A stretch of DNA of 32,000 bases from contig NZ_CP089977.1 in assembly GCF_025643275.1 (NCBI RefSeq), positions 420,001 to 452,000 on the forward strand. The letters are read 5' to 3'. Origin of the DNA: Moraxella nasicaprae. GTDB lineage: Bacteria; Pseudomonadota; Gammaproteobacteria; Pseudomonadales; Moraxellaceae. The position numbers were made by a program, and so were the translations under genes. Of this stretch, positions 5,377 to 22,238 are shown piece after piece (the first letter of the stretch is position 1; the number at the start of each line of letters is the position of its first letter). The notes beneath the pieces are model-generated. The model ran no database searches and was not told where the DNA came from. It was given only the letters and a program-made list of their open reading frames with translations.

Positions 5377-6195
5377 TCATCGCTCATCAATCGCAGCTCG
5401 TAGCTCGTCCATTTTTGCCAAGATATTTGCTTTCGCCTGTTCGATTTTTGCCAAATCATCGCCCACATCAGCAAAGTGTCTGACAAGCTCACTCCCCACA
5501 ATCACCCCATCGGCAAACTTGGCAACCGCCTTTGCACTCTCGCCATCACGAATGCCAAACCCAACACAAATCGGCAAGTCGGTATCCGCCTTAATCGCTT
5601 GTACTTGGCGGGCGACTTCGTCAGTGTCCAGTGCCTTTGAGCCTGTAACGCCCTTAACCGACACATAATAAATAAAGCCCGAACCGTGTTTTAGCACCGC
5701 TTTTCTACGCTCGCTTTGGGTGGTGGGGGCAAGTAGGAAAATTTGGTTAATCTCTTTATCAGCGAGTTTGGCGGATACACTTTCATCAGTCTCATTGGGC
5801 GGTAAATCCACCAACAGTAAGCCGTCCACGCCATTTGCCTCACACAGATTTAAAAAATCATCATAGCCGATAATCTCAACTGGATTAAGATAGCCCATTA
5901 AAAGCACTGGCGTGGTGGTGTTCGTCTTACGAAACTGCCCCACCATTTGCACGGCTTGGCGTGTAGAAGTGCCATTTGTCAATGCTCGCTCGCCAGCCAA
6001 TGAAATGACAGAGCCGTCCGCCATTGGGTCGCTAAATGGCAAGCCAATCTCAATGATGTCCGCTCCGTGTGCCACCAAATCGTGCATCAAATCCACCGTA
6101 ATAGCAGGATTTGGGTCGCCTGCCATAATGTAGGGGATTAGGGCTTTTTTGTTTTGCTGTTTTAAAGTCGCAAAAGTTTCTTGAATTCGGGTCAT
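5377..6195 (-). CDS. trpA: Tryptophan synthase alpha chain
   Basis: The sequence MTRIQETFATLKQQNKKALIPYIMAGDP...IEIGLPFSDPMADG...GFIYYVSVKGVTG...VGFGI is classic TrpA. A GGAGAG RBS lies 8 nt upstream of the ATG at 6195. Confidence 0.92.
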   Translation of the reverse strand: MTRIQETFATLKQQNKKALIPYIMAGDPNPAITVDLMHDLVAHGADIIEIGLPFSDPMADGSVISLAGERALTNGTSTRQAVQMVGQFRKTNTTTPVLLMGYLNPVEIIGYDDFLNLCEANGVDGLLLVDLPPNETDESVSAKLADKEINQIFLLAPTTQSERRKAVLKHGSGFIYYVSVKGVTGSKALDTDEVARQVQAIKADTDLPICVGFGIRDGESAKAVAKFADGVIVGSELVRHFADVGDDLAKIEQAKANILAKMDELRAAIDER

Positions 6196-6219
6196 TTTAA
6201 GCACTCTCCAATCATTAAA

Positions 6220-6966
6220 TCATATTTTTATTGACATAATTTTTCTGTATAGCTCATCAAAGGCTTTAATATTTTCTGGGCTTTCTGAAAGGTTTCGCAT
6301 ATACGAGTCTACATCTTCATACTTGATACTCAAAAACTCATCAAAAAATGCCTTACCACGCCTTATGTTTGTGTTTTCAGGTACATAAATATTGCCTTTC
6401 ATCTTCTTATTGTTGAAGAAAAATAAAATCGGTTCAATTTTAGCGTTTGGGAACTCACGTACCAAATAGGCGTAAGTTTTGATGAATTTACGGTTAATAT
6501 CAACAAATTTTCCCGTGTTGTGGTCGTCATTATACTTTACTTCAAGGTAGTAAATAACGCCTGTTTGCTTGTTTTGAAAAAGAATATCAATATCGTGCTT
6601 GATTGTTGAAAGATTGGTATCATTATCGTTTGCAATGGCGTATAACAATTTGGGAAATTCTTCATCAAGATTTATGGTGTTGTACTGGCAAGAACTTATG
6701 AAATTGTTGATTCTTGTGTCATTTTGGGTAGATAACTGAAAACTATTGCTTTTCTTACTGCTATAATCTTCCAAAATGGTATAACGCCCATCATTCTGGA
6801 TTAAATTTTTCAAGAAAAAAATAGCAAAACAATCAAGATTGATGTTAAATTTTTTCATTATATCAAAAAAGCCATAATCTTGATTTTTATTTTTCTGAAT
6901 GTATAATTTTCTTTTATTTAAACAACAGCTTAAAGAAAAATTAAATGCTTTATCTATATCTTGCAT
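6220..6966 (-). CDS. Hypothetical protein, probable type II restriction-endonuclease-like PD-(D/E)XK nuclease
   Basis: This is a 248-aa ORF in a very AT-rich island. A candidate catalytic core is HDIDILFQNKQTGVIYYLEVKYNDDHNTGK, which fits D-x13-E-V-K. It lies downstream of a methyltransferase remnant. I recognise no closer family. Confidence 0.45.
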   Translation of the reverse strand: MQDIDKAFNFSLSCCLNKRKLYIQKNKNQDYGFFDIMKKFNINLDCFAIFFLKNLIQNDGRYTILEDYSSKKSNSFQLSTQNDTRINNFISSCQYNTINLDEEFPKLLYAIANDNDTNLSTIKHDIDILFQNKQTGVIYYLEVKYNDDHNTGKFVDINRKFIKTYAYLVREFPNAKIEPILFFFNNKKMKGNIYVPENTNIRRGKAFFDEFLSIKYEDVDSYMRNLSESPENIKAFDELYRKIMSIKI

Positions 6967-6976
6967 AGATTACTCC

Positions 6977-7702
6977 TTATCCAAATATTAAATTATCTAT
7001 ATCTTTTGTTTTAATTGTACTATCATATAGCATTTGAATTTCATCATAATTGATAAACCTAAACCTTTCTTTATTATTTTTGTGAATTTCCAAATTTATT
7101 GTTTTTTCAAATTTTTTTCGATGTTTTTCTGGAGCAATGATAAAAAATTCTGAGCGAAAATTCTGTAACTGCAAGCAACGATTAAAAGCCCCATTTAATG
7201 TTCCAATACTATCCACCACTTCAAATATTTTTTGAGGAAATACCAGCCCTTTTTTGTTTAACCAAATAACATCAATTCTTGTTGCCTCCTCCAAAATGTT
7301 GTCATATGAAAATTTTGGCAGAGTTTGTAATGATGTTAAATCCTTTAGTTTAAGATTGTCCCGATAAAATGATGAAGGATCAGCTGTGTAAGTATGGTAA
7401 CCATTGAAATTACCTAACTCAATACATAGACCTTCAATAAAAGAATGCAATCTTATATCTTCTTGAAGTTTAGGCTTTTGCTCCACAATGTAGTCTTGCA
7501 AAGCATAAATACCCACACCTATTTTTTTAAACAATTTACGCTCACCAACTTCACGATATAAGACACCTCGAATGCCAGCTTGCCATTGAATGGAACTTTT
7601 GATACTGGGATAATACTTTTCAATATTATTGTAGATAATATCAAGTGTTGCAACACCCCCATTATCTTCCATTATCCTGAGAATTGCCTGAATTTTTGTC
7701 AT
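6977..7702 (-). CDS. Hypothetical protein with an N-terminal winged-helix (Mrr_N/HARE-HTH-like) domain and a C-terminal PD-(D/E)XK-like domain
   Basis: The N-terminus (MTKIQAILRIMEDNGGVATLDIIYNNIEKYY...WQAGIRGVLYREVGERKLFKKIGVGIYAL) has the pattern of restriction-enzyme wHTH sensor domains. The C-terminus (HSFIEGLCIELGNFNGY...RIDVIWLNKKGLVFPQKIFEVVDS) resembles D...E-V-x-S nuclease cores. Its ATG lies 19 nt after the point where the methylase remnant frame ends. Confidence 0.45.
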   Translation of the reverse strand: MTKIQAILRIMEDNGGVATLDIIYNNIEKYYPSIKSSIQWQAGIRGVLYREVGERKLFKKIGVGIYALQDYIVEQKPKLQEDIRLHSFIEGLCIELGNFNGYHTYTADPSSFYRDNLKLKDLTSLQTLPKFSYDNILEEATRIDVIWLNKKGLVFPQKIFEVVDSIGTLNGAFNRCLQLQNFRSEFFIIAPEKHRKKFEKTINLEIHKNNKERFRFINYDEIQMLYDSTIKTKDIDNLIFG

Positions 7703-7721
7703 AGGTAACTTGCCACAAATT

Positions 7722-8023
7722 TCACATTAAAAATAAAGAACCAATAACCCAAATTGAACCTGTTGGCCTTAAAACCCTTTTGCATTCTGTTAGCCATTCT
7801 TCACAAAAAGAGTCATACTGTTTAAAATCATTAAACTTGTCCCATTCATCTTCTACGCCTGAAAATTTTTCGCCATTAGTGCGTAGTAATTCCCACTCCG
7901 TTTGCATAAAATACGGTGGGTCAGCAAAGATTAAATCAATGCTATTACTGGGTATTTTTTTAAATTTTCTATACAATCCCCTTTTAGGATTGTATTAAGA
8001 AATTGATTTATATTGTCTTTCAT
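7722..8023 (-). pseudogene. 5' remnant of a beta-class (CcrM/M.HinfI-like) DNA methyltransferase, both frameshifted and truncated
   Basis: The track ORF (7722..7976) reads ...IPSNSIDLIFADPPYFMQTE...DEWDKFNDF..YDSFCEEWL.ECKRVLRPTGSIWVIGS and then stops after about 84 aa. Hand translation from the ATG at 8023 in the neighbouring frame gives MKDNINQFLNTILKGDCIENLKK. That joins the DPPY frame only if the A7 run (T7 on the plus strand, 7955-7961) were A8. No catalytic or AdoMet-binding C-terminal two-thirds is present. Confidence 0.75.
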
Positions 8024-8313
8024 AATTCTTGCTCATCTTTAATGATAAACTTTTTCAAAGTTTCATCAAAATAAATCCGCTCATCAAAAATATCGTATTT
8101 TTCCCAGTCAATATATTGATGTTCGGGTTTGGTTCTTAAATCTTGCAAATAAGCCACCTCCGCAAGACAATCATCAATATCCTCTTGCGTTAATGGCTCT
8201 TTGGCATAATGAGAAAACCGCCCAAATAAAGTATCATTTTCTACCACTTTTTGAATGGTGTCATTATTATTTGCAATGCCATACAAATCTTCAATGGAAT
8301 TAAATTTTTCCAT
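8020..8313 (-). CDS. Small, strongly acidic hypothetical protein (97 aa)
   Basis: The ORF is rich in D and E (EDIDDCLAEVAYLQDL, DWEKYDIFDERIYFDE). Its ATG shares one base with the trpB stop (TAATG at 8315-8311). Its TGA overlaps the methylase-remnant ATG (ATGA at 8023-8020). Confidence 0.6.
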   Translation of the reverse strand: MEKFNSIEDLYGIANNNDTIQKVVENDTLFGRFSHYAKEPLTQEDIDDCLAEVAYLQDLRTKPEHQYIDWEKYDIFDERIYFDETLKKFIIKDEQEL

Positions 8314-9515
8314 TATAATTCAATCCCATCCACTTTCATCACCGTATGCAAATCTTTATCGCCACGCCCTGATAAATTGATGACAATGGATTTGTCCTGC
8401 CCCAATGTCTTGGCAAGTTTCAATCCATAAGCCACAGCGTGCGAGCTTTCTAGGGCTGGGATAATGCCCTCCGTCTTGGTCAAAATACGAAACGCCGCCA
8501 ATGCCTCATCATCGTTAATCACGCCATATTCCACACGCCCCATATCCTTTAAAAAGCTGTGTTCAGGCCCAACCCCAGGGTAGTCAAGCCCCGCAGAAAT
8601 GCTATGCGTTTCAATAACTTGCCCTTCATCGTCTGCCATCAGATAGGTGCGATTGCCGTGCAGGACACCCACACGCCCTGCATTTAGGGGGGCTGAATGC
8701 TTGCCTGTCTCAATCCCATATCCGCCAGCTTCTACGCCATAGAGCTTGACGGTTTCGTCATTTAAAAACTCATAAAACAGCCCCATTGCATTTGAGCCAC
8801 CGCCCACGCACGCCACACAGGCATCGGGCAATTTGTCTTCAAATTGCAAATGTTGCAGACGAGCCTCACGCCCAATAATCGCCTGAAAATCACGCACAAG
8901 TAGCGGATAAGGGTGTGGACCTGCCACCGTGCCGATGACATAATAGGTGCTATCCACATTGGTAACCCAGTCTCGCATCGCTTCGTTCATTGCGTCTTTC
9001 AATGTCCGAGAACCGCTCGTAACAGGCACAACAGTCGCCCCAAGTAGTCTCATACGATAGACATTCATCTTTTGGCGTTCCACATCGTCCGCCCCCATAT
9101 AGACCACGCATTCTAAGCCCAATCTAGCAGCGATGGTTGCCGTTGCCACGCCGTGCTGACCTGCCCCTGTTTCGGCGATAATGCGTTTTTTGCCGACAAG
9201 TTTCGCCAAAAGTGCCTGCCCAATGGTATTATTGACCTTATGAGCCCCTGTGTGGTTTAAATCCTCTCGTTTTAGATAAATCTTAGCCCCACCAGTTTCT
9301 GCTGTTAAGCGTTTGGCAAAATACAGCGGTGTGGGACGGCCGACATAGTTTATCAAATCGTCATTATATTCTTTCCAAAATTCAGGGTTATTTTTAACGC
9401 TTAAATAAATGCGTTCTAATTCTTCAAGTGCCGTCATCAAAGTTTCAGAAACAAATCGTCCGCCGTGAATGCCAAAATGACCTGTGGGGTTTGGGTATTG
9501 GGTAAAGTCTGTCAT
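8313..9515 (-). CDS. trpB: Tryptophan synthase beta chain
   Basis: The sequence [15 protein letters not shown]...[16 protein letters not shown] (PLP lysine)...GGGSNAMG...[11 protein letters not shown] is unambiguous TrpB. Confidence 0.95.
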
Positions 9516-9550: not shown

Positions 9551-9754
9551 TCATTGATTTTTTTCAAAATAACTTTGTGCCTGAGAACTTAATTCATCTA
9601 GCGTTAAATCTTCAAATAATTTTTCTTGCCATTTGGTATAATCAAAACTTTCACGGCGAATTAAAGCAATAAATCGCTCTGCCTGAACTTCACCTAATGC
9701 TTTAATTAGGCTTTGCATACCTGTTAGGCGAATTTCACTATCACTAATCATCAT
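9551..9754 (-). CDS. Putative antitoxin partner of the upstream PIN-domain protein
   Basis: This is a 67-aa ORF overlapping the PIN gene stop by ATGA (9754-9751). The ERFIALIRRESFDYTKWQ motif matches small partners that I recall being encoded after this PIN subfamily. Confidence 0.55.
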   Translation of the reverse strand: MMISDSEIRLTGMQSLIKALGEVQAERFIALIRRESFDYTKWQEKLFEDLTLDELSSQAQSYFEKNQ

Positions 9755-10182
9755 TTAATTTCCTGTATAAAATCAATTGGGTTTAATGCAATAATATCAT
9801 TATTTGCTTGCATTTTATTCAACAATTTATTATCAGTTGATAAAAAGTATTCTGCTTGTGCATTGACAGCACAGGCAATATGCAAAGCATCTTTAATTTT
9901 GATATTTTGCTCCATTAAGATTTTGGCATAAGTTTTTATTTCTTGATTTTCACCAATCAAAACAGTGGCTAATTTTTGCCATTTTTCTATGGCAAATCTA
10001 CGCTCAAAAAATGGGTTTTGGCTATTTTCATAAGCCAAAATATAAGACCAAACCAAATCCAATTCACCATTTTTTATTAACTCTTGAATATGTAATTTGC
10101 TTTCGGTTTCTAATCGCACTCTGATATTATCTTGATTGTCAAAAGGGCGATTAAACATACAGTTATCCAAATAGACAAGCAT
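9751..10182 (-). CDS. PIN-domain ribonuclease toxin (VapC-like)
   Basis: The sequence MLVYLDNCMFNRPFDNQ...SYILAYEN...DALHIACAV...FLSTDNKL places the four acidic PIN residues at the expected spacing (D6, E~52, D~98, D~116). Confidence 0.7.
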   Translation of the reverse strand: MLVYLDNCMFNRPFDNQDNIRVRLETESKLHIQELIKNGELDLVWSYILAYENSQNPFFERRFAIEKWQKLATVLIGENQEIKTYAKILMEQNIKIKDALHIACAVNAQAEYFLSTDNKLLNKMQANNDIIALNPIDFIQEIK

Positions 10183-15244: not shown

Positions 15245-16192
15245 TTACCCCATCAACTCATCAATCAATTCTTTCACTGTTTTAATGCGGTCAATCGCTG
15301 AAATGCCATTACCCACCGACACATAGCCGTTTTCAAAATCGCCTTCTAACATACCCAAACGCATTCCCGTGCCAGCATTCATCACTTTGGCGATTTCAGA
15401 GCGAGTTGCCCCATTTTCACTCATTTCAAAGCATTTTTTGGCAAGTTCGGTTGGCAAGGAGCGGTAATAATACGGCTCGGTGCGGAACAAGAGTAAATCA
15501 TTGGCGGTTGCATTGACAATCCATTCTTTGACTTTTTGATGGCTACGGCATTCGGTTGTGGCGATAAATGCCGTGCCAATCCACACCCCTTCCGCCCCAA
15601 GCGTTAAGGCAGCCTGCACCGCTTTTTTATCGGCAATGCCACCAGCCAGCATTATCGGCAAATCCACTTTACCCACAAATTCTGAAAGCACATTAAAACT
15701 GCCCACTTCTTTCATCGGCAAAGTACCGCCCTCATCAAATCCCGTCAGCACCAAAATATCTGCACCGAGTTCTTGGGCTTTTAGTGCGTCCGCCAAATTA
15801 GGATTAGGCAAACGGCAGATGATTTTAATGCCCGCCTGTTTGAGTTTGGCGTAAATTTCAGTGTCAAGCCAGCCATTATCCAGTACCACAGGCACACGCT
15901 CTTCAATGAATAAATCCACCATTAAGGGAATCAGCGAAAAATCATAAGACAACATAAACGGCACACCAAACGGTTTATCGGTCAAGGCTTTAACCTTGCG
16001 GATTTCGTTACGCATACGCTCTAAAACTTCTTCGTTGGAAGTGGGGTTGGTCGTCTGCCCTGCGTGTGGGGCTAAAAAACCAAGCCCACCAGCCTCAGCA
16101 ACGCTTGCCACCAGATGTGCATCGGTCAGCCAACTCATTGGCGCTTGGACGATGGGGTGTTTGATGTTTAAGATTTGGGTAATGCGGTTCAT
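15245..16192 (-). CDS. Nitronate monooxygenase / FMN-dependent NMO-family oxidoreductase
   Basis: The sequence KHPIVQAPMSWLTD...AGGLGFLA...LAGGIADKKAV...GAEGVWIGTAF has the NMO/2-nitropropane dioxygenase TIM-barrel signatures. Confidence 0.8.
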   Translation of the reverse strand: MNRITQILNIKHPIVQAPMSWLTDAHLVASVAEAGGLGFLAPHAGQTTNPTSNEEVLERMRNEIRKVKALTDKPFGVPFMLSYDFSLIPLMVDLFIEERVPVVLDNGWLDTEIYAKLKQAGIKIICRLPNPNLADALKAQELGADILVLTGFDEGGTLPMKEVGSFNVLSEFVGKVDLPIMLAGGIADKKAVQAALTLGAEGVWIGTAFIATTECRSHQKVKEWIVNATANDLLLFRTEPYYYRSLPTELAKKCFEMSENGATRSEIAKVMNAGTGMRLGMLEGDFENGYVSVGNGISAIDRIKTVKELIDELMG

Positions 16193-16301
16193 TGGATTTT
16201 CCTGTTTGAATGAAAAGAATTAGGCGTATTTTAACGGTTTTGGATTTGGGAGGGAATGAGTAAAAATGGGAAGGTGGTTTTCGGATTTGGAAATATGTCA
16301 T

Positions 16302-16330
16302 TTGAAAAAGCTGTCAAAAAAATCTATAAT
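16302..16330 (+). promoter_or_regulatory. Candidate sigma70 promoter of the helicase/DprA-like cassette
   Basis: There is TTGAAA (16302-16307), a 17-nt spacer, then TATAAT (16325-16330). An AAGGAA RBS lies at 16347-16352, ahead of the ATG at 16362. Confidence 0.5.
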
Positions 16331-16361
16331 ATCCAAAATCTCAATCAAGGAATAACACATT

Positions 16362-18440
16362 ATGCACTTTAATCCAAGTCGCGCTCTTGAATTATTAAGA
16401 CAAGGTTCAAGTAATCCAAATGCTAAATTTCGTGATGGACAAGAGGAGGCTATTACTCATCTTGTTACCAGCACACAAAGACTGCTGGTAGTGCAAAAAA
16501 CAGGCTGGGGTAAAAGTTTTGTTTATTTTATTGCCACACAATTATTACGAGAATCAGGTGCTGGCATTACGCTACTTATCTCGCCATTATTAGCGTTAAT
16601 GCGTAACCAAATTGCGGCAGCAAAAAGAATGGGCTTAAAGGCGGTAAGTATCAATTCGGAAAATACCGATGATTGGAAGCAAATAGAACAAGAGATTATT
16701 TTAGGACAAGTGGATATCGTTCTAATCTCACCTGAACGATTGGCAAATCAGAACTTTATCAATAATGTTTTGAGTCAAATTGCTGGAAATATTGGTTTAT
16801 TGGTTATTGATGAAGCACACTGTATTTCAGATTGGGGACACGATTTTCGTCCAGATTATCGTTTAATTGAACGAATTATTAAAAATTTACCACCCAATCT
16901 GCGTGTTTTGGCAACTACAGCAACCGCCAATCAGCGTGTAATGGATGACCTTATTGCCATTCTAGGACCCAATATTGCGGTTTCAAGAGGAGATTTAAAT
17001 CGCCCATCATTAACCTTACAAACGATTAAATTGCCCAGCCAAATTGAACGTTTGGCGTGGCTGGCTGAACAACTGTCTCATTTGCAAGGTAGCGGTATTA
17101 TTTATACTTTAACAGTGAGAGATGCCAATCAAGTTGCTGATTGGCTTAAATTGCAAGGTTTTGATGTGGAAGCCTATACAGGCGAAAGTGGTGATAAAAG
17201 GATTGAATTAGAAGATAAACTACTTAATAATCAAGTCAAAGCATTGGTTGCCACAACTGCTTTGGGAATGGGATATGATAAGCCTGATTTGGGATTTGTC
17301 ATTCATTATCAAATGCCAAATTCTGTTGTTGCTTATTATCAACAAGTTGGACGAGCTGGGCGAGCATTATCGAACGCTTATGGCGTTTTATTGAGCGGTA
17401 TAGAAGATGATGAAATCAGTGCGTTTTTTATTGACAGTGCTTTCCCAAAACCAAATGAAGTGAATCAAATTTTAAATGCATTAAAACAATCGCCAAATGG
17501 ATTATCATCAAATGAATTGCAAGACAACATCAATTTAAGTCAAGGCAGAATCAGCAAAGCATTAAAAGTCTTATCATTAGAATCGCCAGCACCTTTGGTT
17601 AAGCAAGACACAAAATGGCAATTAACTTCCGCTACATTATCTACTGATTTTTGGCAAAGGGTTAATCGCCTCACAGAATTAAGAAAAAATGAACATCAGC
17701 AAATGAAAAATTATGTTGATTTACCATTTGGTCAGCATATGGCATTTTTAGTTAATGCACTTGATGGTGATACACAACAAATTATGCCACCCCAATTACC
17801 ACCATTACCAACTTTAATTCACCCAACTTTCGTTCAACAAGCCAGTGAATTTTTGCACAGAAGTAATGTGATTATTGAACCAAGAAAGAAATGGGCAACA
17901 GGTGGTTCAACACAATTTTCGCAAAAAGGTAATATCAATCCAAATTTTCAAGCAGAGGAAGGACGTGCATTATCCATTTGGGGCGATGCTGGCTGGGGCA
18001 AATTGGTCAAACAAGGAAAGTATCAAGATAATCATTTTGCAGATGAATTGGTGAATGCCTGTTGTGAAATGATTGAGCGTTGGCAACCCAATCCAAAACC
18101 AACTTGGGTAACTTGCGTGCCGTCTTTGCGACACCCTGATTTGGTGCCTGATTTTGCTAGGCGGTTGGCAATGAAATTGGGGTTGCCATTTATGCCAATT
18201 ATCCAAAAAATCAAAGAAACTGAGCCACAAAAAATGATGCAAAATAGCCATATGCAAGCCCATAATTTAGATGGCGTATTTCAGTTGAGTGATAATCCAT
18301 TGTCAGAACCCGTTTTATTGATTGATGATATGGTGGATTCTCGTTGGACTTTAACCATATGTAGCTATCTTTTAAAATTTAATGGTAGTGGTGCAGTCTT
18401 TCCACTTGTACTTTCTCAAACCAGCAATCAAGGTGAATAA
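16362..18440 (+). CDS. RecQ-family superfamily-2 helicase fused to a C-terminal ComF/phosphoribosyltransferase-like domain (PsyrT/RqlH-like putative toxin)
   Basis: It has Walker A QKTGWGKS, the RecQ-type DEAH box VIDEAHCISDWGHDFRPDY, TATA, ATTALGMGYDKPD and motif VI YYQQVGRAGR. The C-terminal roughly 115 aa (WVTCVPSLRHPDLVPDFARRLA...PVLLIDDMVDSRWTL) have a PRTase/ComF-like layout. Confidence 0.85.
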   Translation: MHFNPSRALELLRQGSSNPNAKFRDGQEEAITHLVTSTQRLLVVQKTGWGKSFVYFIATQLLRESGAGITLLISPLLALMRNQIAAAKRMGLKAVSINSENTDDWKQIEQEIILGQVDIVLISPERLANQNFINNVLSQIAGNIGLLVIDEAHCISDWGHDFRPDYRLIERIIKNLPPNLRVLATTATANQRVMDDLIAILGPNIAVSRGDLNRPSLTLQTIKLPSQIERLAWLAEQLSHLQGSGIIYTLTVRDANQVADWLKLQGFDVEAYTGESGDKRIELEDKLLNNQVKALVATTALGMGYDKPDLGFVIHYQMPNSVVAYYQQVGRAGRALSNAYGVLLSGIEDDEISAFFIDSAFPKPNEVNQILNALKQSPNGLSSNELQDNINLSQGRISKALKVLSLESPAPLVKQDTKWQLTSATLSTDFWQRVNRLTELRKNEHQQMKNYVDLPFGQHMAFLVNALDGDTQQIMPPQLPPLPTLIHPTFVQQASEFLHRSNVIIEPRKKWATGGSTQFSQKGNINPNFQAEEGRALSIWGDAGWGKLVKQGKYQDNHFADELVNACCEMIERWQPNPKPTWVTCVPSLRHPDLVPDFARRLAMKLGLPFMPIIQKIKETEPQKMMQNSHMQAHNLDGVFQLSDNPLSEPVLLIDDMVDSRWTLTICSYLLKFNGSGAVFPLVLSQTSNQGE

Positions 18441-18443
18441 GAA

Positions 18444-19682
18444 ATGTTTATTTCAGATAATACCAAAGCCATTTTACTTTTAACTGCACCATTATTATTG
18501 GGAAAAAGTCAAAATAATATTAAATTATTAAGCAATAAAGAATATCATCAGTTAGCTGTTTATTTAAAAAATCATCATAAACAGCCTGCGGATTTACTGG
18601 GTAACGAATTAAGTGATATTTTAGCTGATTATGGAAAATTAGAATATGAGCGAATCCAGCAATTATTACAAAGAGGTTTTTTATTAAGCCAAACTCTTGA
18701 TTATTGGTATTCTCGCAATATTTGGGTCATCAGTCGTGCAGATAAAACTTACCCAAGTCGTTTAAAAATTCGTTTAGGAGAACAAGCACCACCAATATTA
18801 TATGGTTGTGGCGATGTTAATTTACTCAATTTTGGCGGGATAGCAATTGTAGGCTCTCGCAATATTGACGATGAATTGATTGCTTATACACAAAATATTG
18901 CTCATCTAGCTGCACAATCTGGCAAAATGGTCGTTTCTGGTGGAGCAAAAGGAGTAGATTTAGCAGCAATACAAGAGGCTTTACAGGTTGGTGGGGTTGT
19001 TTGTGGTGTGTTGGCAGATAGTTTGGAGAAAATGGCTTTGAATGCAGTAAATCGCTCTGCATTACAAGAAAATCGTTTAGTGCTTATTTCTGCGTGCGAC
19101 CCCAAATCTCGTTTTATGGTTGGCAATGCAATGCAACGCAATAAATATATTTATGCACTTTCGGACATTGGCTTGGTTGTTAATTCTGATTTAAATAAAG
19201 GGGGAACTTGGGCTGGTGCTGTTGAGCAATTAGACAAATACAAGCACATTCCGATTTATGTCCGTTCAACTGGTACTGAAAATGCAGGATTAAATGCCTT
19301 GGTAAATAAAGGAGCATTATGGTGGGATAATCCAAGAGATACACAATCATTTTTAGATATTTTTAACGGCAAATTTGTATCAAATATGAATACACCAAAA
19401 CCACAAACAAATTCATCCCCTAATGATAAATCAATTACACATCCGAATCTTGATTTATCTCCAGAAAAAGAGTTATTTTTATTGGTTAAAAAACTGATTG
19501 AGCAAAATTTGCAAGAACCTAAAAAAGAAAAAGAGCTGGCTGAATTATTGGCAGTTTCCAGTTCTCAAATCCGAATATGGCTTGAACGCTTAATTAAAGA
19601 AGATGTGGTTGTTAAACAAAATAAGCCTATACGATATGCCCTGCGTTCAAAATCTGAGAATTTGGAATTATTTCCTTCTTAA
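18444..19682 (+). CDS. DprA/Smf-fold (SLOG) protein with a C-terminal winged helix (PsyrA/RqlI-like putative antitoxin)
   Basis: The sequence YPSRLKIRLGEQAPPILYGCGD...IAIVGSRN...VVSGGAKGVDLAA...GNAMQRNKYIYALSD...GGTWAGAVE is the DprA Rossmann core. The C-terminus (KELAELLAVSSSQIRIWLERLIKEDVV) looks like a wHTH. It starts 3 nt after the helicase stop and has an AAGGTGA RBS. Confidence 0.85.
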   Translation: MFISDNTKAILLLTAPLLLGKSQNNIKLLSNKEYHQLAVYLKNHHKQPADLLGNELSDILADYGKLEYERIQQLLQRGFLLSQTLDYWYSRNIWVISRADKTYPSRLKIRLGEQAPPILYGCGDVNLLNFGGIAIVGSRNIDDELIAYTQNIAHLAAQSGKMVVSGGAKGVDLAAIQEALQVGGVVCGVLADSLEKMALNAVNRSALQENRLVLISACDPKSRFMVGNAMQRNKYIYALSDIGLVVNSDLNKGGTWAGAVEQLDKYKHIPIYVRSTGTENAGLNALVNKGALWWDNPRDTQSFLDIFNGKFVSNMNTPKPQTNSSPNDKSITHPNLDLSPEKELFLLVKKLIEQNLQEPKKEKELAELLAVSSSQIRIWLERLIKEDVVVKQNKPIRYALRSKSENLELFPS

Positions 19683-19696
19683 TGGGAAAAACAAAA

Positions 19697-20587
19697 ATGA
19701 ACCTCAACACCCTCCGTCTTTTCGTTGCCGTTATCCAGCACGGCAGTTTGTCCAAAGCCTCCGAACGACTCAATGTGCCGATTGCGACCATTAGCCGTCA
19801 AATTGCCGATTTGGAAAAAGAGCTTAATATTCAACTCTTTGACCGCCAAAAATCAGGCGTTAAACCCACAATGGCAGGGCAACGCCTGTATGAACAGGTG
19901 CATTTGTCCATTGAACAGCTTGCCAATGCCAAAGAAGTACTCTTTGAAGAGCAAGGCAATTTAAAGGGTAAATTACGCCTGTCGGCAAGCCCTGCCTGCG
20001 AGCCTGTTTTGGCGTGGATAGCTGATTTTCAGGCAGCCTACCCACAGGTACAGGTGCATTGCACGCTGACCGACCGTCTTTTGGATTTGTCGGCAGACGG
20101 CATTGATGTGGCGTTTCGGATTGGGCAGTTACACGGCGAACAATTTATCGCCAAAAAAGTGGGGCAAATCGGCAGCAAATGGGTGGCACACCCTGATTTA
20201 TTGACACGATTGGGTACACCCAACACCATCAAGGATTTGAAAAATTTCCCCATTGCCGCTTGGGCAAAAAATGAAGCAAGCGTCATCACGCTAGGGGTTG
20301 GCAGACAAGCGGTGGAAATTCCCTATCTTTTTGCCAGCAATGACAGCTATGCCATTGAATATATGGCAAAACAGGGCAAAGCAGTGGCTCTGCTTGCCGA
20401 CAGCACGGTGGATAGACTCGTGGCAGAAAATGGCTTGGTGGAGGTCTTAGGCGAGACAGAAAACCCCAAATTTGATTTGACGATGATTTATGCCGCCCAT
20501 CGTTATCCGTCTAGCATTGTACGGGCGTTTGTGGGGTTTGTGCTTGATAGGGTAAATAATGAGACTTTGGACGATTCAGCCATTTGA
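19697..20587 (+). CDS. LysR-family transcriptional regulator
   Basis: The sequence MNLNTLRLFVAVIQHGSLSKASERLNVPIATISRQIADLEKELNIQLFDR has the LysR HTH signature. I prefer the start at 19697 over the ATG at 19682, which overlaps the upstream stop. Confidence 0.85.
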   Translation: MNLNTLRLFVAVIQHGSLSKASERLNVPIATISRQIADLEKELNIQLFDRQKSGVKPTMAGQRLYEQVHLSIEQLANAKEVLFEEQGNLKGKLRLSASPACEPVLAWIADFQAAYPQVQVHCTLTDRLLDLSADGIDVAFRIGQLHGEQFIAKKVGQIGSKWVAHPDLLTRLGTPNTIKDLKNFPIAAWAKNEASVITLGVGRQAVEIPYLFASNDSYAIEYMAKQGKAVALLADSTVDRLVAENGLVEVLGETENPKFDLTMIYAAHRYPSSIVRAFVGFVLDRVNNETLDDSAI

Positions 20588-21164
20588 CTGGTATGAAACA
20601 CTGATGAGTGATGGCGTGATTTATGCCAAAGGTGAGCTGATTGATTGGTTAAATGAAGACAATTTTAAAACTGCCTATCATTGGCTGATGGGGCAAATGA
20701 CACATAAGATCGGCAAACCGCCAATGCCTGATGTTTATCCGATTTGGGCGTGGTATCAATGGCAAAACGCCAAGAAGAACAAGCCTGATTTAAGATTTGG
20801 TGGCATTGGCATCAAAGGTCAAAAAAGCGTTTTATTGGAAATTGAAAAAAGCGATGATGAAGTCTTATTAAGCGATTTTGATTTATGGCATTGTGTATTA
20901 AATGAATGGCATATTGCCGATAACGAACAAGAAAGCGATTGGTTTGATGATTGTCTAAGGCAAGCGGGGATTGATTTTTGCGATAAACATCTTTATCCGC
21001 CCAATATTCGCCAGATTATGCAAAACAGCTGGCAAAAAATCTTTGATATGGATTATTGTGCAGAATACAGCACCAATTCATTTTCACAAAAAAGCATTCA
21101 AGCGACTTTTTGGCAATTGTCCATTGATGAGATTAAAAGCGTGCGGACTTTTATCGCCAAATAA
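20559..21164 (+). CDS. DUF3841-like hypothetical protein
   Basis: This is a 201-aa ORF starting MRLWTIQPFDWYETL, an N-terminus I associate with DUF3841. It overlaps the end of the LysR gene by 29 nt. Confidence 0.5.
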   Translation: MRLWTIQPFDWYETLMSDGVIYAKGELIDWLNEDNFKTAYHWLMGQMTHKIGKPPMPDVYPIWAWYQWQNAKKNKPDLRFGGIGIKGQKSVLLEIEKSDDEVLLSDFDLWHCVLNEWHIADNEQESDWFDDCLRQAGIDFCDKHLYPPNIRQIMQNSWQKIFDMDYCAEYSTNSFSQKSIQATFWQLSIDEIKSVRTFIAK

Positions 21165-21199
21165 AACACCGCTTAAACCTAACGCCAAACGGTGTTTTT
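21163..21199. terminator. Hairpin terminator between the convergent DUF3841 and MDR oxidoreductase genes
   Basis: The stem pairs aaaacaccg (21163-21171) with cggtgtttt (21190-21198). The flanks are A-rich on one side and T-rich on the other. The loop is 18 nt. Confidence 0.55.
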
Positions 21200-21212: not shown

Positions 21213-22238
21213 TTAGCCCATCTCAATCACAATCTTACCCTTTGCTCGTCCGCTTTCGCTGTATTCTAAGGCTTTTTGGGTATCATCAAAGGCAAAAACT
21301 TGGTCAATGATTGGGCGTAATTTACCCGCTTCTGCCCAAGTTTTGATGATATTTAACTGCTTGCTAGACGGTTTCATAAACAAAAATTCATAACTTGTCC
21401 CATAATTTTGGGCGGTTTTGTGGATTTTGGCACTGATTAAGCCCATTATCAATTGTTTGACCCAAGAAAGCCCCATTTCTTTGGCAAAATCTTTGGTTGG
21501 TATTCCTGCCACACTGATGACTTTTCCGCCTTGTTTTAAAATTTTAAAGGATTTTAACAAAGTTTCACCACCCACCGTATCTAGCACAAAATCAAAATTC
21601 TTTAATTTTTGTTCAAAATTTTCTTGTTTATAATCAATCACTTCATCAGCACCCAGTGATTTGACAATGCCTAAGCCCTTACCACTGGCGGTGGTGGCAA
21701 CATACAAGCCCAAAATTTTGGCAATCTGTATGGAAACACTGCCCAAGCCCCCTGCCCCTGCGTGAATGAGAACTTTATCGCCTGATTTGATGCCCATTTT
21801 GTCAAAGGCTTGAATGGCAGTCAAAGCGACAAGCGGTAGGCTTGCCGATTGGTTAAAGTCTAAATTGGCAGGTTTTTTGGCAAGATTGTGTTGATTGATG
21901 GCGATAAACTGTGCAAAACTGCCAATCCGCAAAGTATCCGTACGGACAAACACTTCATCGCCAATGGCAAAATTTTTAACATTTTTGCCAACTGCTACCA
22001 CCACACCAGCAAAATCATTGCCTAAAATCAGGGGCAGAGAAAAAGGCAAAACCAGCTTTAAATCGCCATTTCTAATTTTAAAATCAAGCGGATTGACGCT
22101 GGCACTGACTACCTTGACCAAAACATCATCATCGCCAATTTTTGGGGCGGGAATACTGGTTTTTTGTACAGGGTATTTGCCATATTTTTGGACGGTCATT
22201 GCAGTCATTTGGGTGGGCTTAGCCATTGATATTCTCAT
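21213..22238 (-). CDS. Zinc-type/MDR-family NADPH:quinone oxidoreductase-like dehydrogenase
   Basis: It has the GDEVF motif and the Rossmann motif HAGAGGLGSVSIQIAK, and ends in GRAKGKIVIEM, typical of the quinone-oxidoreductase subfamily. The start is uncertain; ATGs at 22238, 22226 and 22208 are all possible. Confidence 0.8.
   Translation of the reverse strand: MRISMAKPTQMTAMTVQKYGKYPVQKTSIPAPKIGDDDVLVKVVSASVNPLDFKIRNGDLKLVLPFSLPLILGNDFAGVVVAVGKNVKNFAIGDEVFVRTDTLRIGSFAQFIAINQHNLAKKPANLDFNQSASLPLVALTAIQAFDKMGIKSGDKVLIHAGAGGLGSVSIQIAKILGLYVATTASGKGLGIVKSLGADEVIDYKQENFEQKLKNFDFVLDTVGGETLLKSFKILKQGGKVISVAGIPTKDFAKEMGLSWVKQLIMGLISAKIHKTAQNYGTSYEFLFMKPSSKQLNIIKTWAEAGKLRPIIDQVFAFDDTQKALEYSESGRAKGKIVIEMG

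Follow-up and report, generated by a model that had tools for sequence, protein, structure and literature searches.

The window analysed here is a stretch of 32,000 nucleotides from Moraxella nasicaprae (contig NZ_CP089977.1, positions 420,001 to 452,000), and we describe in it a pair of genes, psyrT and psyrA (also called rqlH and rqlI), which lie on the same strand with 3 nt between them and are named 'RecQ family helicase' and 'DprA' in the NCBI annotation. An earlier interpretation made from the letters and their open reading frames (ORFs), hereafter the sequence-only reading, had taken them for a tightly coupled toxin-antitoxin and anti-phage pair of the PsyrTA (RqlHI) type with its own promoter, set in DNA richer in AT than both flanks. 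Our analysis confirmed that the pair is an intact, standard member of this system, and the features behind that description were recovered:

16294-16361, plus strand: cassette-borne 5' region with TTGAAA (16302-16307), a 17-nt spacer, TATAAT (16325-16330) and an AAGGA ribosome-binding site
16362-18440, plus strand: psyrT (rqlH), 692 amino acids (aa)
18444-19682, plus strand: psyrA (rqlI), 412 aa

Both proteins match the curated PsyrTA detection profiles over their full length. PsyrT aligns with the PADLOC PsyrT model PDLC03928 (E = 7.7e-284, 941 bits) through residues 3-690 of 692 and profile positions 3-687 of 689, and PsyrA aligns with the PsyrA model PDLC03927 (E = 1.5e-133, 444 bits) through residues 1-401 of 412 and profile positions 1-397 of 398. 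The DprA-like partner lies directly downstream of PsyrT on the same strand, and the architecture fits the descriptions in PMC4670107 and in the Millman 2022 preprint. With RqlH-RqlI of Escherichia coli F11 and PsyrTA of Pseudomonas syringae the pair shares the gene order, the tight coupling, a RecQ-like protein with a ComF/phosphoribosyltransferase (PRTase) end and an intact phosphoribosyl pyrophosphate (PRPP) loop, and a DprA/SLOG partner with a C-terminal helix-turn-helix (HTH) domain; the sizes are also close (692 + 412 aa against 690 + 400 aa in F11). The PsyrTA system itself is already known, and standard tools such as PADLOC detect such copies automatically. The exact PsyrT protein is annotated in Moraxella nasicaprae.

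For PsyrT, the sequence-only reading had described a complete RecQ-type superfamily 2 (SF2) helicase core that lacks the usual HRDC end and finishes in a ComF/PRTase-like domain, which agrees with the following arrangement:

PsyrT residues ~1-350: RecQ-like SF2 helicase (Pfam DEAD and Helicase_C, RecQ structures)
PsyrT residues ~350-505: winged-helix/linker region without cysteines
PsyrT residues ~505-692: predicted ComF/PRTase-like C-terminal domain, PRPP loop at 651-663

The helicase core is intact, with its Walker A, DEAH and arginine-finger motifs: GWGKS occupies residues 48-52, DEAH 150-153, followed by CISDWGHDFRPDY at 154-166, and QQVGRAGR 327-334. The PRPP loop VLLIDDMVDSRWT lies at residues 651-663 and includes DDMVDS at 655-660. 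K51 of Walker A, DEAH and the PRPP loop fall in invariant columns of the homologue alignment. Pfam DEAD (1.3e-25) and Helicase_C (2.2e-15) are matched, as are RecQ structures (2e-51), and the score against the NCBI recQ_fam subfamily model, 243 bits, is above its cut-off of 219.8. PsyrT is not a bona fide RecQ, as it misses the recQ equivalog TIGR01389 (264.5 bits, cut-off 640.2, with a match confined to the core, 21-363) and no Pfam match to HRDC, RQC or RecQ zinc-binding domains was found at E <= 0.1.

The sequence evidence for a PRTase end was too weak alone (Pfam Pribosyltran, E = 0.076), and for this reason structure prediction and Foldseek were used for the C-terminus. A profile of 15 family sequences searched against the PDB returned PRPP synthetases only, at E = 0.03 and aligned exactly on the PRPP loop. 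In the AlphaFold model of residues 481-692 the alpha/beta core has a pLDDT of 79-96 (68 overall), and in Foldseek against the PDB the top ~47 matches are all type-I phosphoribosyltransferases, among them PurF, XPRT/HGPRT/APRT, PyrR, Helicobacter pylori ComF and ShosT (8zvb, 8zvc, 8zvd), with modest scores (E = 1e-3 to 5e-2, TM 0.3-0.5). By fold, PsyrT is thus predicted to end in a ComF/PRTase-like domain with a PRPP loop in place of HRDC.

No cysteine occurs in PsyrT residues 335-506 (window 17364-17880), and likewise none in 71 of 91 close homologues. RqlH of Mycobacterium smegmatis, the founding and biochemically characterised member, has a RecQ-like ATPase core, a linker, no HRDC, a ComF/PRTase-like C-terminus and a similar length (691 aa), but carries a tetracysteine zinc-binding domain at residues 435-499 and no partner gene, whereas the window protein is cysteine-free in this region and paired with PsyrA. 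This suggests that the PsyrA-paired proteobacterial PsyrT clade may have a zinc-free version of the M. smegmatis module. Three PsyrT homologues (P0066, P0082 and P0089) of ~993-995 aa carry additional Pfam PF26109, PF13280 and PF26107 on one polypeptide, possibly a fused architecture.

PsyrA shows the full layout of DprA, as the sequence-only reading had proposed while arguing against a genuine competence dprA. The AlphaFold model (overall pLDDT 70) divides as follows:

PsyrA residues 5-90: N-terminal helical region
PsyrA residues 93-308: DprA/SLOG Rossmann-like alpha/beta core
PsyrA residues 310-337: disordered linker
PsyrA residues 340-400: C-terminal winged helix (helix-helix-helix-strand-strand), pLDDT 84-91

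Pfam assigns DNA_processg_A (2.7e-35) and SLOG cluster4, and the best Foldseek matches are the DprA structures 3uqz, 3maj and 4ljk (~1e-11) and ShosA 8zva (4e-11), followed by LOG/SLOG proteins; PsyrA also matches the ShosA models in PADLOC (8.2e-24). The protein is not a bona fide competence DprA: it scores 89.6 bits against the dprA equivalog TIGR00732, whose cut-off is 191.15, and 60.5 bits against PRK10736, whose cut-off is 495.

PsyrT has more than 8000 homologues; identities of 66-67% are seen across Beta- and Gammaproteobacteria, among them Ralstonia, Paraburkholderia and Acidovorax. Among 5426 complete E. coli genomes, 1678 (31%) carry a homologous pair. One E. coli pair that bears the same annotation shows 63% (PsyrT) and 44% (PsyrA) identity to the window proteins, the toxin being markedly better conserved than the antitoxin; this copy resides within a conjugative element and adjoins an ABC-three-component system. 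Relative to it the window PsyrA has a linker ~50 aa shorter, and no other distinguishing feature was seen beyond these identities. Neither the shorter linker nor the zinc-free module affects the membership in PsyrTA. Plasmid carriage of PsyrT is rare (12 records at >=80% coverage). In the phage genomes of the collection no full-length PsyrT was found, only matches to the helicase core at <=37% identity, and a phage-borne origin was ruled out on this basis.

The DNA of the pair is AT-richer than its flanks (GC 0.34-0.38 against 0.47-0.49): 0.379 in psyrT and 0.344 in psyrA, compared with 0.473 in the adjacent, divergent nitronate monooxygenase (NMO)-like gene, 0.486 in lysR and 0.458 in proS. 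The TTGAAA-17-TATAAT promoter at 16302-16330 matches the consensus at 11 of 12 positions, lies 32 nt upstream of the psyrT ATG and is the top-scoring site of a promoter scan across 15-21.5 kb. The consensus match alone is weak evidence, because promoter-like sites in this region are no more frequent than expected by chance (21 observed, 17.9 expected from shuffled sequence). Both hexamers and the 17-nt spacing are identical in five independent psyrTA copies, one of them with unrelated flanks.

The new part of our observations is the setting. The pair occupies a compact slot with sharp ends between a conserved NMO-like gene and a conserved lysR, and in relatives the same slot holds alternative defence systems. 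This observation covers window positions 15245-16293 and 19684-21199 and the loci L001-L016, L023 and L025. The two arms in the window are:

15245-16293, minus strand: left conserved arm, the NMO-like gene (15245-16192; Pfam NMO, 4e-60) and ~100 bp of conserved intergenic DNA
19684-21164, plus strand: right conserved arm, the lysR ribosome-binding site, lysR (19697-20587) and a DUF3841 gene (20559-21164) (Pfam HTH_1, LysR_substrate and DUF3841)

A search of genomes with the NMO protein recovered 16 loci in which this protein is 85-98% identical; they belong to Moraxella, Mannheimia, Bibersteinia, Alysiella, Lonepinella and Neisseria weixii. Such identity across three families is far too high for vertical descent. 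The lysR gene lies divergently upstream of the NMO gene in 10 of the 16 loci, and the content of the gap between them varies:

L012, Mannheimia cairinae: empty gap, 104 bp
L014, Bibersteinia trehalosi: empty gap, 200 bp
L001, L005 and L008, Mannheimia glucosida, M. haemolytica and Moraxella boevrei: Avs2, ~1380 aa (PDLC02162, E = 0)
L002, Moraxella lacunata NCTC10359: PDC-M12 A+B
L003, Moraxella oblonga: type III restriction-modification (R-M), Mod + Res
L011, Moraxella caprae: 703-aa protein with a NERD domain
L015, Moraxella lacunata CCUG 4441: PDC-S01 ATPase
L013, Neisseria weixii: gap of ~8.5 kb

Counting psyrTA, the slot thus presents two empty sites and six cassette types, which is the pattern of a minimal mobile element. 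Where the cassette was identified (seven loci), its GC content is 0.26-0.38, it is on the lysR strand and its 3' end meets the start of lysR. The sequence-only reading had named a comparison of relatives at this locus as a check on its proposal; there the site is empty or carries other defence systems, hence psyrTA is accessory and horizontally acquired. Further defence genes stand beside the NMO gene or a few kb away: a type IIG R-M gene (L006), an AriA/PD-T4-4-like ATPase (L010) and, in L016, a type I R-M S subunit, a ThsA/LmuA-like protein and AbiD. The cargo of L011 (7695-9806) is a lone protein of 703 aa with no Pfam match and a C-terminal NERD domain in PADLOC (2.7e-22), a candidate single-gene defence protein.

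The junctions were placed by alignments and BLAST. On the NMO side homology ends at ~16293 (…GGATTTGGAAA), and its end falls at 16281-16296 in the 12 loci whose nucleotide match reaches the intergenic region; on the lysR side it restarts at the ribosome-binding site (~19684-19696), 0-14 nt 5' of the lysR start codon (ATG, 19697). Since both junctions are shared and sharp, the psyrTA cassette spans ~16294-19683, which nearly coincides with the interval given in the sequence-only reading. The homology with the other NMO loci stops before the -35 box, so the promoter is the cassette's own and lies outside the shared flank; a promoter belonging to a shared lysR/NMO regulatory region was ruled out in this way. 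Empty sites have ~90-100 bp with their own -10-like box between the two boundaries, and every cassette replaces that stretch. A lysR start at 19682, overlapping the psyrA stop, was also discarded, as empty sites and other loci show the conserved ATG at 19697. No terminator-like site was found between psyrA and lysR, and for this reason transcription from the cassette promoter probably reads through into lysR and the DUF3841 gene that overlaps it.

The unit of NMO gene, psyrT, psyrA and lysR (with the DUF3841 gene) recurs in Moraxella sp. ZY210820 with 95.4% nucleotide identity (window 15250-21198), and the NMO-psyrTA-lysR unit recurs in Mannheimia pernigra with 87.8% (window 15251-20282), in both cases with wholly different outer neighbours. 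The match in Ursidibacter arcticus is limited to the two psyrTA genes (75.6%) and the flanks differ, which indicates that the cassette also moves on its own. Moraxella bovis (L022, 7831-9911) carries a decaying locus that lacks the NMO gene and has lysR broken into two parts (64 + 231 aa). Its psyrT has a 1-nt deletion in a run of six A just before the Walker A codons (window ~16495-16500), and the resulting frameshift separates the first ~56 aa including GWGKS; several M. bovis genomes have the shortened product in their annotation. Between the DUF3841 and OsmC genes, which are directly adjacent in Moraxella lacunata (L002), the window has a zinc-type alcohol dehydrogenase gene (21213-22238); judged from this gene order, it appears to be another small insertion/deletion difference, at the margin of the shared unit.

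We looked for signs of a dedicated mobility mechanism. The window contains no tRNAs and no Rfam matches, and there is no integrase association; an association with tRNA, integrase or structured RNA was therefore rejected for the window. The cassette is not bounded by convincing terminal repeats or att-like sites; the short repeats that were found are compatible with chance. Among these, two 18-nt direct copies with 83% identity (ATTTGGAAATATGTCATT / ATTTGGAATTATTTCCTT) lie across the left junction (16285-16302) and just ahead of the psyrA stop (19660-19677). This repeat has no counterpart in other cassettes, is probably due to chance, and was rejected as a sign of transposition or site-specific integration. 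Among the slot loci a transposase remnant was seen in L005 only.

Cassettes are most plausibly swapped by homologous recombination in the NMO and lysR arms. The genera concerned are naturally transformable. The concept of the minimal mobile element in Neisseria goes back to Saunders and Snyder 2002, as cited in PMC1538595. Neisserial elements of this type, and defence hotspots flanked by core genes, are likewise alternative whole-gene cassettes between two conserved genes that vary with the strain or species, devoid of integrase, tRNA or terminal repeats. Two differences set the present slot apart from them: its flanking genes are 85-98% identical across three families while sitting in different neighbourhoods, and its cassettes replace the promoter region of an arm gene, lysR. 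As arm genes of such identity occur in different neighbourhoods, the slot travels together with its arms. In this sense, we tentatively consider a portable exchange site, with arms that may have passed between Moraxellaceae, Pasteurellaceae and Neisseriaceae living in the animal respiratory tract, cassettes that would be swapped with base precision between the end of a conserved regulatory stretch of ~100 bp and the lysR ribosome-binding site, and a lysR (perhaps, through lysR, also the NMO gene) that would depend on read-through from the resident cassette; this extended proposal is possible, though on balance doubtful. If true, the retention and expression of the resident defence system would become tied to a housekeeping regulator, or LysR would control the cassette.

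What PsyrTA does has been studied in homologues. RqlH of M. smegmatis acts as a 3'-5' helicase and can unwind without its ComF-like end (PMC3378886). RqlH of E. coli F11 expressed alone provokes SOS induction, filamentation and loss of viability; this toxicity needs the PRTase domain and its PRPP pocket and is abolished by D663A, the PRTase domain alone is insufficient, and the helicase-dead K49A and D148A variants are still harmful (PMC4670107). Co-expression of RqlI relieves the toxicity, and the RqlI HTH domain is dispensable (PMC4670107). A physical interaction between RqlI and RqlH is described there as well. The window residues K51, D150 and D655/D656 with the PRPP loop are the counterparts of K49, D148 and DIVD663 of F11 RqlH. 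Millman et al. reported PsyrTA as a toxin-antitoxin pair that protects against phage upon heterologous expression, and found that the deletion of psyrA could not be transformed (Millman 2022 preprint).

The sequence-only reading had stated that the mechanism was unresolved. This stands for PsyrTA, for which our literature search found no specific mechanism paper, and not for the sister system ShosTA, which has mechanistic and structural ones (PMC11961720, PMC12961424). ShosTA also pairs a PRTase-containing toxin with a DprA-like antitoxin, behaves as a toxin-antitoxin system and defends against phage. The N-terminus of ShosT is a pyrophosphatase-like fold (PMC12961424), whereas the N-terminal two-thirds of the window PsyrT are a RecQ-like helicase, so the pair is not a ShosTA. 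The ShosT toxin interferes with purine metabolism and binds PRPP, its antitoxin ShosA binds single-stranded DNA (ssDNA) and RecA, and T7 Gp0.7-mediated host shut-off or phage ssDNA has been proposed as the trigger (PMC11961720, PMC12961424).

Following these precedents, psyrT and psyrA would be co-transcribed from the cassette's own sigma-70 promoter, and PsyrT would combine a 3'-5' RecQ-like DNA motor with a PRPP-binding PRTase-like domain, the latter being the toxic part. Unrestrained, this domain would damage DNA and induce SOS, and cells would filament and lose viability, probably through a perturbed purine/nucleotide metabolism by analogy with ShosT. In the uninfected cell PsyrA would keep PsyrT in check. 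Infection may lift this restraint, either because host shut-off depletes PsyrA or because PsyrA and the helicase become engaged by ssDNA and replication intermediates of the phage, and the released PRPP-dependent activity would then harm the nucleotide supply or DNA, so that the cell is arrested or killed before phage release.

The identity of the parts, their intactness and the accessory location of psyrTA are observed directly in the window and its relatives. Taken together, the locus very likely is an intact PsyrTA (RqlHI) two-gene toxin-antitoxin/abortive-infection cassette of M. nasicaprae, horizontally acquired into a defence-cassette exchange site. Several points weigh against this interpretation. 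A native-host study in E. coli detected no PsyrTA protection against the tested phages, and expression in K-12 caused a growth defect only (10.1101/2024.12.20.629700). Toxicity, neutralisation and phage protection would all carry over from E. coli homologues of 44-63% identity or from more remote ones. The scores behind the PRTase assignment are weak (Pfam E = 0.076, the Foldseek values, a model pLDDT of 68), and the recombination route is one we infer from the sharp shared junctions and the absent terminal repeats, rather than one that was observed. According to PMC12961424, ShosA neutralises ShosT without binding it directly (type IV), whereas RqlI binds RqlH; the ShosTA analogy may thus fail at the neutralisation step.

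The native-host result is also the reason to keep a rival in which the pair would be mainly a selfish addiction module, stabilising itself and the NMO-lysR unit by post-segregational killing, with phage defence at most incidental. The toxin-antitoxin behaviour in E. coli (PMC4670107) and the failed transformation after psyrA deletion would fit such a role, and since the cassette replaces the lysR promoter region its simple loss would disturb lysR expression too. Against this stand the phage protection reported by Millman et al. and the presence of Avs2, R-M and PADLOC candidate systems in the same slot elsewhere, which points to selection for defence at the site. Moreover, in M. bovis psyrT was frameshifted without loss of the locus, so the addiction is not absolute, and we regard a mainly addictive role as improbable. 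Less probable still is a housekeeping module for DNA repair or recombination, in which an RqlH-type helicase and a DprA-like RecA loader would serve a competent bacterium rather than its immunity. M. smegmatis RqlH is indeed a bona fide 3'-5' helicase in a species lacking RecQ (PMC3378886), rqlH occurs without a partner in most Gram-positive bacteria, ShosA and DprA bind RecA and ssDNA, and the NCBI names of the pair agree with such a function. But both proteins miss the recQ and dprA equivalog cut-offs, their base composition is foreign, the PRTase domain of F11 RqlH causes genotoxicity when the partner is missing, and related species have unrelated defence genes at the same site instead of psyrTA.

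The psyrTA cassette by itself adds little, being one more intact copy of an automatically detected system. Its relatives may provide a natural system for questions on PsyrTA (the role of the PRTase, the trigger, the contribution of the helicase), as psyrT is intact in M. nasicaprae and Mannheimia pernigra and carries a frameshift that removes Walker A in M. bovis. The slot in veterinary respiratory bacteria, with its six or more alternative defence cargos, could be mined for new systems, for example the 703-aa NERD protein and the PDC candidates, and it bears on the prospects of phage therapy and on gene flow between Moraxella and Mannheimia.

Elsewhere in the window, a low-GC (0.29-0.33) stretch at 6220-8313 parts trpB (8313-9515) from trpA (5377-6204). 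It holds an ORF for a type II restriction enzyme (6220-6966; PDLC03491, 5e-111), ORFs of 241 aa (weak restriction endonuclease match) and 97 aa, and an 84-aa methyltransferase fragment with a DPPY motif (7722-7976), and looks like a decayed R-M cassette inserted within the trpBA pair. In a second low-GC stretch (9.5-11.5 kb), a 143-aa ORF at 9751-10182 has a weak PIN-domain match (E = 5.6e-4) that falls short of the Pfam cut-off; the ORF is possibly what remains of a toxin.

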